Positions 61,195-61,660 are shown, counted from the first letter of the stretch. The stretch: DNA of 64,000 nucleotides from GCF_053078305.1 NZ_CP166879.1, one strand, 5' to 3'. The notes: generated by a model not told the origin, from the letters alone. Translations and numbers: made by a program.

Positions 61195-61440
61195 TTACAT
61201 CATCATGTCGCTGTCAGGTGTGGGTTCACCGCCATCTGAAGCACTCCCCTCACCCGCAATGCCTTCCGGCTCCGGAACTGCCGGTGCGCCCAGCAGTTCA
61301 TCCAGAATGGCATCCACTTCTGCATCAAGACGCGCCTCAAGGTTCTGGCGGAGTTTCTGTTTCAGTGCGCTCAGGACTTCTTCAGAGCGCAGGACTTCCT
61401 TCACTGCCTCTGCAGTGACCAGGGATGTAATTTCTGACAT
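61195..61440 (-). CDS. hypothetical acidic 81-aa protein
   Basis: [51 protein letters not shown]...DSDMMM; internal Met of track ORF 61195..61614; weak SD. Confidence 0.35.
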
Positions 61441-61480
61441 GGGATTTTCTCGTCGAAAGGTGTGATTAAGAAAGTTGCAG

Positions 61481-61660
61481 CTAAATGAGCGGCTCTTCGG
61501 GTTTGCTTCCGGCTGACTGACTGGCGCTGATTTTCTCTGCGGCCCTTTTATCAATCTGCCTGCGCCAGAAATCGCGCACTGCCCTGTACCCACCCGAAAG
61601 AAGATACAGCACACAGACCGCCGTACAGAAGTACAGCATCACCTGATGAATAAATGTCAT
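61481..61660 (-). CDS. hypothetical 59-aa membrane protein
   Basis: Hand translation MTFIHQVMLYFCTAVCVLYLLSGGYRAVRDFWRRQIDKRAAEKISASQSAGSKPEEPLI; below track cutoff; weak SD; coordinates approximate. Confidence 0.35.
   Translation of the reverse strand: MTFIHQVMLYFCTAVCVLYLLSGGYRAVRDFWRRQIDKRAAEKISASQSAGSKPEEPLI

Follow-up and report, generated by a model that had tools for sequence, protein, structure and literature searches.

Two small genes between an esterase gene and a holin gene

Within a stretch of 64,000 nucleotides from GCF_053078305.1 (NZ_CP166879.1), referred to here as the window, two small open reading frames (ORFs) of 59 and 81 amino acids lie on the minus strand between a gene for a NanS-p-type sialate O-acetylesterase and the gene for the holin S. 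They belong to the families DUF1378 and DUF826 respectively, and occupy exactly the interval, 61195-61660, assigned to them in an earlier note made from the sequence alone. Both are genuine protein-coding genes under purifying selection, the pair is independent of the holin, and on balance we regard it as accessory cargo of temperate phages. The minus strand carries, in the order of late transcription, the esterase gene, the DUF1378 gene, the DUF826 gene, the gene for S, an ORF of 328 amino acids with a DUF1327 N-terminus and the lysozyme gene (Table 1).

The DUF1378 ORF begins with ATG. That of DUF826 begins at an internal ATG of a longer ORF with a GTG start, and gene callers differ on which start is used; public calls of 128-141 amino acids overlap DUF1378 in another frame. 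The ATG at 61440 is aligned with the start in all the divergent homologues, and we take this to be the start of the gene. We rejected the existence of a natural DUF1378-DUF826 fusion. The DUF826 entries of 128-141 amino acids (PHROG 8301; P0124, P0145, P0160 and P0201) are over-extended GTG starts, and the 135-amino-acid entry with both domains (P0200) is a lone read-through of the spacer. Plus-strand ORFs opposite DUF826, of 86 and 77 amino acids, were rejected on account of stops in most homologues.

A predicted membrane protein and a proposed acidic partner

The 59-amino-acid protein matches Pfam DUF1378 with its residues 1-59 on positions 1-59 of the 59-position model (128.7 bits, E = 8.8e-38), and the 81-amino-acid protein matches DUF826 with residues 1-75 on positions 1-75 of 75 (141.6 bits, E = 8.5e-42). 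Both exceed, over the full model, a gathering cut-off that is 25 bits in each family. The corresponding PHROG families, phrog_494 and phrog_311, are in categories without assigned function, and the RefSeq/PGAP names are 'DUF1378 family protein' and 'DUF826 domain-containing protein'. Identity to RefSeq entries so named is 92-97% for the first protein and 95-96% for the second, and the orthologues in prophage Sp5 of E. coli O157:H7 Sakai are ECs_1210 (DUF1378) and ECs_1211 (DUF826), hereafter ECs1210 and ECs1211. Judged by these matches both genes are already known as catalogued objects, being ordinary family members 95-97% identical to catalogued sequences.

The DUF1378 protein has a single hydrophobic stretch at residues 3-21 (mean Kyte-Doolittle value 1.93) followed by a tail with an isoelectric point (pI) of 10.0, in agreement with the N-terminal transmembrane helix and basic tail that had been described for it. 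Within the family the transmembrane helix extends over approximately residues 3-24 and includes the conserved motif LYFCTAVCVLYL-SGGY, followed by a helix of basic character and by the conserved sequence AAEKISASQSA. The columns L9, F11, C12, V15, L18, L20, S22, G23, G24, Y25, R33, D37, A40, E42 and K43 are invariant in 14 sequences, and the core LYFC..V..LYL.SGGY and the segment AAEK(I/L)S show little or no variation; the conserved core also takes in a cytoplasmic motif, ..D..A.EK. An AlphaFold2 model comprises one helix, from residue 2 to 49. The protein is thus predicted to pass once through the inner membrane with its N-terminus outside, and by the positive-inside rule the basic helical tail would lie in the cytoplasm.

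The DUF826 protein is highly acidic, as had been stated, with a pI of 4.05 and a net charge of -12. Its AlphaFold2 model has helices at residues 10-17 and 20-49, with block-mean predicted local distance difference test (pLDDT) values of 84-95 over residues 11-50, and a tail with values below 50 that is taken to be disordered. The same division is seen in the family, where residues 1-51 form a conserved, helical and acidic N-domain and the tail varies in length and sequence while remaining acidic and proline-rich; its C-terminal tip is kept hydrophobic, as MMM, MML or TML. Invariant columns are L7, V8, A10, A12, V13, K14, R18, E20, V22, L26, K27, R31, E35, A40, V42, I45, L46, D47, L49 and G51. 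According to the model, DUF826 is a soluble and strongly acidic protein with a long amphipathic helix and a disordered acidic tail.

Comparison with wider databases gave no assignment of function. Foldseek found no match in the PDB to the DUF826 model, profile searches with either family against PDB sequences gave noise (E > 0.7), a search of NCBIfam gave nothing for either protein, and in PADLOC-DB 2.0 there was no defence-system family at E up to 1 for DUF1378, DUF826 or the esterase. Of 1.84 billion cluster representatives, an exhaustive profile search with DUF826 picked out 56, every one from a single small family; so few representatives indicate that DUF826 is a small family confined to enterobacterial prophages.

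Evidence that both ORFs are translated genes

Divergent versions of the pair were gathered, down to 64% identity for DUF1378 and 50% for DUF826. Across these both ORFs retain the aligned ATG and stay open, and in neither case is any frame but the sense frame free of stops in all seven divergent homologues. Pairwise ratios of nonsynonymous to synonymous substitution rates (dN/dS) are 0.09-0.32 for DUF1378 and 0.13-0.64 for DUF826. The pooled polymorphism ratio (pN/pS) in the sense frame is 0.32 for DUF1378, falling to 0.20 in the transmembrane part, and 0.47 and 0.66 for the N-domain and tail of DUF826. The other frames give 1.0-6.6, save one antisense frame whose wobble positions coincide with those of the sense frame and which scores the same as sense; that frame is not open, with stops in most variants.

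Translation had earlier been called tentative on account of weak ribosome-binding sites, and these are indeed weak in the window; the calculated energies of pairing to the 16S tail are -3.1 kcal/mol for DUF1378 and -3.0 kcal/mol for DUF826, compared with -7.4 kcal/mol for S. In relatives, strong Shine-Dalgarno sequences such as GGGAGGG and GGGAGGA are found at the same positions, with energies down to -10.7 and -11.3 kcal/mol. The caution, justified for the window itself, is answered by these sites and by ribosome footprints on the Sakai orthologue. Ribosome profiling, which had been proposed as a check, is provided by published data. In uninduced Sakai grown in LB (lysogeny broth), ECs1210 has an RNA level of 40.8 reads per kilobase per million (RPKM) and footprints of 22.5 RPKM covering 85% of the ORF, and the adjacent holin gene 14.4 RPKM of RNA, 7.9 RPKM of footprints and 40% coverage (PMC5597208, S2 table), although these reads may be common to several paralogous prophage copies. 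A microarray study (PMC2241611) lists ECs1211 among the genes regulated by growth phase. In lysogens that are not induced, expression of the relatives seems to be low. Conservation, the other check that had been suggested, is evident in the full-length Pfam matches, in the purifying selection and in the distribution of the pair; 1,052 of the 5,426 complete E. coli genomes screened by a sensitive DNA search contain it, at a total of 2,725 places and at most eight times in one genome.

The weak Shine-Dalgarno sites of the window, the small size of the proteins and the disagreement between gene callers over the DUF826 start could be taken as signs that the two ORFs arose by chance, or are artefacts of annotation, and give no protein. 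We give scarcely any credence to this. It is already contradicted by the frame-specific purifying selection, by the maintenance of both ORFs in four genomic contexts and where identity has dropped to 50-64%, by the strong ribosome-binding sites of the relatives and by the footprints on ECs1210.

Table 1. Coordinates of the gene pair and of adjacent genes and elements in the window
Feature	Position	Strand	Basis
DUF1378 gene, 59 amino acids	61481..61660	-	Pfam PF07125, phrog_494, RefSeq 'DUF1378 family protein'
DUF826 gene, 81 amino acids	61195..61440	-	Pfam PF05696, phrog_311
Upstream neighbour: NanS-p-type sialate O-acetylesterase gene, 655 amino acids, domains DUF1737 + SASA + DUF6645	61799..63766	-	Pfam
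Downstream neighbour: P21-type class II holin S, 71 amino acids, dual start MYQM	60903..61118	-	Pfam PF04971
Terminator-like hairpin, 13-bp stem, 4-nt loop, T-rich tail	61146..61185	-	Terminator scan
Putative antisense small-RNA unit in the esterase-DUF1378 spacer	61679..61797	+	Promoter/terminator layout, weak Rfam match
Over-extended GTG-start ORF of DUF826, 139 amino acids, overlapping DUF1378 in another frame	61195-61614	-	

Beyond S, the 328-amino-acid ORF (59912-60898, minus strand) that separates it from the lysozyme gene matches DUF1327, the YdfR family, over residues 1-74 and PHROG 1085 as a whole; at this position relatives have ORFs of about 75 to 328 amino acids, or none. An ORF of 311 amino acids resembling a DNA methyltransferase, with the motif DPPY (57914-58849, minus strand), lies 3' of the lysozyme gene where Rz/Rz1 would be expected, accompanied by two small ORFs with hydrophobic C-termini (58857-59218).

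The pair is found in four phage backbones

A first set of 92 loci was assembled from 80 loci on viral contigs and those collected earlier. The lambdoid order of esterase, DUF1378, DUF826 and holin was observed in every one of these with enough flanking sequence, the apparent exceptions being contig ends, and it is retained in distant lambdoid variants. In one locus (L103) the pair precedes a holin of a different family, Phage_holin_2_3. A second scan with divergent DUF1378 seeds gave 78 loci, one of them interrupted by an insertion sequence, with the esterase upstream wherever flank was available (locus L229 has about 200 nt on that side). Over some 170 loci in three phage backbones, the esterase gene is 5' of the pair in all that have enough upstream sequence except two, L164 and L166.

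Mu-like prophages, reached by way of a distant DUF826 (P0240), carry both genes at their right end, in the order tail-fibre assembly gene, gin-like invertase gene, esterase, DUF1378, DUF826, com, mom and host DNA, with no holin near the pair. Genes in this order are annotated in E. coli O157:H7, and 206 complete E. coli genomes were found to have them. The Mu-like loci L093-L095 and L107 have a NanS-p-type esterase that lacks the DUF1737 N-domain. In a P2-like prophage (L180) DUF1378 occurs without DUF826, between the lysis genes and the tail-completion gene R, and again no holin was found near it.

The two exceptional loci, L164 (2697-3673) and L166, come from one metagenome. Here the order is reversed, with a short DUF826 gene followed by that of DUF1378, and the pair lies 3' of genes for a tail fibre and its assembly, convergent with genes for a 169-residue hexapeptide-repeat acetyltransferase and a Dam methylase. 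Neither an esterase nor a holin gene is present. A short, tail-less subfamily of DUF826, of about 56-60 amino acids, also occurs alone, between Rz/Rz1 and the gene for the small terminase subunit in at least 28 loci (for example L121:5950-6183), and elsewhere (for example L109:6001-6180) it is found 3' of genes for an MptE-like protein and a methyltransferase. This subfamily takes DUF826 beyond the esterase context of E. coli.

DUF1378 and DUF826 are adjacent in essentially all the loci, in one order or the other. That the two are kept together in either order argues for a joint function, and their occurrence at the accessory-gene sites of four phage backbones marks them as cargo. Prophages lacking the pair were also found. 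In PP2 of E2348/69 the esterase gene leads directly to the holin gene with a small RNA between them and no DUF genes, and Qin of K-12 has the same P21-type holin without the pair.

The pair is independent of the holin

An alternative role raised in the earlier note was that of lysis modulators, for example antiholin-like factors. The two proteins would then interact with the pinholin S, or with the basic tail at its C-terminus, and so delay or sharpen its triggering. In phage T4 the antiholins are RI, which is tethered to the membrane and acts in the periplasm, and the cytoplasmic RIII, and by analogy the sizes and compartments of our two proteins are similar. In all lambdoid loci the pair is directly upstream of S on the late transcript, in L103 it precedes a holin of another family, and the short relatives of DUF826 are found just after lysis genes.

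Other observations point the other way. S is 98-100% identical across loci in which DUF1378 diverges to 64% and DUF826 to 50% identity, and in the divergent loci there is a step in DNA identity near 61166, from about 68-74% to 91%, which marks a mosaic boundary. Comparison of DUF1378 with S by hhalign gave a probability of 0.3%, indicating no relationship, and we rejected on this basis the possibility that DUF1378 is a diverged holin fragment comprising the second transmembrane segment and basic tail. Searches of Pfam and PHROG with both proteins found no family of the lysis category, only families without assigned function. Read from its sequence, S already has its own antiholin by virtue of the dual start MYQM, and a terminator-like hairpin, discussed below, parts the pair from S.

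Nor is linkage to a holin constant. The pair is far from the lysis genes in the Mu-like prophages of 206 genomes and beside tail-fibre genes in L164 and L166, L180 has DUF1378 with no holin near it, and many P21-type cassettes, such as those of E2348/69 and K-12 Qin, lack the pair. We conclude that the pair is independent of the holin. As the pair neither depends on the holin, nor co-varies with it, nor is related to it, the idea of an antiholin loses its basis, and we consider a role in lysis timing unlikely.

RNA elements on either side of the pair

Immediately 3' of the DUF826 stop, and before the ribosome-binding site of S, the sequence can form a hairpin (61185..61156). One is found at the same position in 19 of 24 distinct variants, the Mu-like context included, compared with 29% of shuffled sequences, and stem sequences of at least nine visibly distinct kinds are represented; by the scan's count there are 13 different 5' arms. 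In 18 of the 24 the hairpin is followed by a T-rich tail. The T-run of the window is interrupted (CTTTATATTGTTGT), making its efficiency uncertain, and that of close relatives is continuous (TTTTTTATT). The hairpin looks like a terminator of the esterase-DUF unit. If so, polymerase modified by Q would read through it, and it would shield S from other transcription. In uninduced Sakai the RNA level falls 2.8-fold from ECs1210 to the holin gene, consistent with termination at the hairpin.

Between 60800 and 62000, promoter prediction gave no sigma-70 site for the strand that carries the genes. There are RNA and footprints in uninduced Sakai despite this, and they may originate from upstream promoters or from spontaneous induction.

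On the opposite strand, the spacer between the esterase and DUF1378 genes contains a putative antisense RNA unit, separate from both proteins and sharing their 5' untranslated region. A -35 sequence TTGACA (61679-84) is followed after 17-18 nt by an A-rich -10 sequence (61702-08), a variable body of about 70-80 nt and a terminator, CCGCCAGC/GCTGGCGG, with stem arms at 61761-68 and 61782-89 and seven T nucleotides at 61791-97. Of 51 distinct spacers, 49 have a -35 hexamer TTGAC[A/T/G], and their arrangement of promoter and terminator resembles that of the window. The unit aligns over its full length with Rfam Esr41, with a weak score (20.7 bits, E = 0.34, against a threshold of 102). We rejected an identification as Esr41, which adjoins iha in a different island and is matched far below threshold; the unit is a weak relative at most.

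Small RNAs have been described at this position. PasA is an Hfq-dependent small RNA of enteropathogenic E. coli (EPEC; PMC8550237, table S6), EcOnc33 and EcOnc52 are small RNAs of prophages in enterohaemorrhagic E. coli (EHEC; PMC4104026), and a 2026 preprint describes an 'esterase-PasA-holin-lysozyme' arrangement, with the DUF genes unmentioned. The EcOnc33 probe matches the spacer variant present in L005 and L010-L012. Judged by its layout, the antisense RNA of the window is of a known kind. In PP2 of E2348/69 the interval between esterase and holin (L105:2767-3213) has two antisense terminator units, PasA and one nearer the esterase where the 236-nt form of PasA ends, together with a sense-strand terminator before the holin gene.

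An antisense unit next to a small membrane protein could suggest a locus resembling a type I toxin-antitoxin system, in which DUF1378 is the toxin, the RNA restrains it and DUF826 is an antidote or a bystander. DUF1378 does have a single membrane helix, the unit is conserved within its 5' untranslated region, where the -35 box is separated by 19 nt from the start codon, and in the lineage of the window the ribosome-binding site is weak. The RNA itself (61716-61797) would, however, come no closer than about 55 nt to the start codon at 61660, clear of the ribosome-binding site and the ORF. The same class of RNA is found in E2348/69 without DUF1378, where it acts in trans via Hfq, and at least one Mu-like variant, L095, has the pair without the RNA unit. 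Moreover, typical type I toxins are smaller than a protein of 59 amino acids with a conserved soluble tail. We regard such a system as very unlikely.

A probable accessory module of temperate phages

We consider it somewhat more likely than not that the pair is an accessory module of the moron type in temperate enterobacterial phages, made up of a membrane anchor and an acidic partner and probably tied to the esterase cargo. The tie to the esterase itself is the more tentative part, and taken alone we would put it at rather less than an even chance. Morons are extra genes at fixed insertion sites in late operons, typically with a terminator of their own (Juhala et al. 2000, as cited in PMC4104026). 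The pair occupies the Q-S interval, its presence is patchy, extending to about a fifth of the E. coli genomes searched and absent from E2348/69 PP2 and K-12 Qin, and in most variants it is followed directly by the hairpin and T-rich tail. The suggestion of the earlier note that these are further late-operon cargo agrees with the evidence, namely real genes, conserved at the protein level, that lie at a known moron site and are distributed patchily among similar prophages.

In this prophage transcription of the pair would be Q-dependent, as part of the late transcript on which it follows the NanS-p-type esterase and comes before the terminator-like hairpin that precedes S. DUF1378 and DUF826 may work jointly on the cytoplasmic side of the inner membrane. 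Their role may be connected with the neighbouring glycan O-acetyl enzyme, for example with where it is placed or how it is released, or with another trait of the lysogen, rather than with when lysis occurs. The most constant neighbour of the pair is a sugar O-acetyl esterase, and in the one context where the esterase is missing there is an acetyltransferase; this suggests, and does not prove, a shared theme. A specific form of the proposal, which we consider improbable, is that the two proteins constitute a membrane-anchored adaptor for phage-borne O-acetyl enzymes, such as NanS-p esterases and the hexapeptide acetyltransferase of L164 and L166, that act on surface or mucin sugars. Such an adaptor might hold the esterase, which has no signal peptide, at the inner membrane or aid its exit without lysis, and the acidic tail of DUF826 with its hydrophobic tip could be the docking element.

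A number of observations weigh against an esterase-linked module. The sole paper that names both families, in which DUF1378 and DUF826 ORFs lie between nanS-p and S in some Stx2a phages, reports their presence only and no function (PMC10462455). Adjacency to the esterase may be hitch-hiking, and there are recombination breakpoints between it and the pair; in L003 the C-domain of the esterase has 42% identity where the pair has 96-97%. Co-divergence of esterase and pair was sought as evidence of a single module and not found, the esterase itself being mosaic. Many prophage esterase genes, such as that of E2348/69 PP2, are without the pair, and the esterase query matched 14,380 places compared with 2,725 for the pair, although the former include chromosomal nanS and partial matches. 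The families are also not inseparable, since short DUF826 occurs alone between Rz and terminase and DUF1378 occurs once without DUF826, in L180. The position of the lambdoid pair directly upstream of S, and of the short DUF826 subfamily just after lysis genes, would be compatible with a loose link to the lysis region, and the gene strand near the pair has no predicted sigma-70 promoter. Finally, AlphaFold gave no confident complex for linked DUF1378-DUF826 (predicted template modelling score, pTM, 0.22), and the confidence of the DUF826 helix dropped; with a 20-residue linker, a genome-paired alignment of 12 pairs and no contact map this is a weak test.

Alternatively, the pair may be independent cargo for lysogenic conversion, directed at the host or at other phages, for example through a small membrane protein that prevents superinfection or changes envelope physiology; the esterase would then be a mere neighbour at a site where insertions are common. 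We think this possible, and less probable than a module linked to the esterase. The pair is found at moron sites in four backbones (the lambdoid Q-S interval, the right end of Mu, after the lysis genes in a P2-like phage and beside tail-fibre genes), breakpoints lie on both sides of it, and L164 and L166 have it without an esterase. RNA and footprints in uninduced Sakai, and the shift of ECs1211 with growth phase, would fit such a role, although the Sakai reads may be shared among paralogous prophage copies. Against this, the esterase precedes the pair in all of the approximately 170 loci with enough flank except L164 and L166, no PADLOC defence model matched, and no promoter of its own was detected. 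We place the esterase-linked accessory module first, then independent cargo, lysis modulators, a toxin-antitoxin-like unit and, last, ORFs that are not genes.

In Shiga-toxin phages the pair adjoins stx, nanS-p and the lysis genes, and it is present in many other E. coli prophages. To what was catalogued we add a test of coding selection, a corrected start for DUF826, the distinction between the pair and the holin, three further contexts (Mu-like, P2-like and in reversed order), and the framing by a terminator-like hairpin and a putative antisense RNA. Grouping the genes with the esterase cargo shifts the informative readouts to the location and release of the esterase and to traits of the lysogen, away from lysis timing. 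If the pair does help a cytoplasmic esterase to reach its extracellular substrate, this would explain how a lysogen can profit from NanS-p without dying.

Comparison with known systems

The resemblance to the T4 RI/RIII antiholins and to the dual-start antiholin S21-71 is one of size and compartment only, a small membrane protein and a small helical cytoplasmic protein being encoded near a holin. The pair differs in having no sequence or family relationship to these and no obligate linkage to a holin. The putative antisense unit of the window corresponds in location and orientation to PasA in EPEC E2348/69, EcOnc52 in Sakai Sp4 and EcOnc33, and shares with PasA/PasC and EcOnc33/51/52 the character of an antisense, terminator-ended unit directly after the esterase stop, while the sequence of its body is different.

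Within their own families both proteins conform closely to type. The 59-amino-acid protein is an ordinary member of DUF1378 and PHROG 494, equal in length to ECs1210 and found in the same position between esterase and DUF826. The 81-amino-acid protein has the helical N-domain and acidic tail of DUF826, PHROG 311 and ECs1211; its tail is short, giving 81 amino acids compared with 89-101 in most members of the E. coli type and up to 130 in distant ones. With respect to morons, the pair differs in that no promoter of its own was detected and in that the unit seems to include, or to depend on, the upstream esterase. It resembles them in lying in the Q-S interval that is used by stx, nanS-p and small RNAs, in its patchy occurrence and in the hairpin that follows directly after it.

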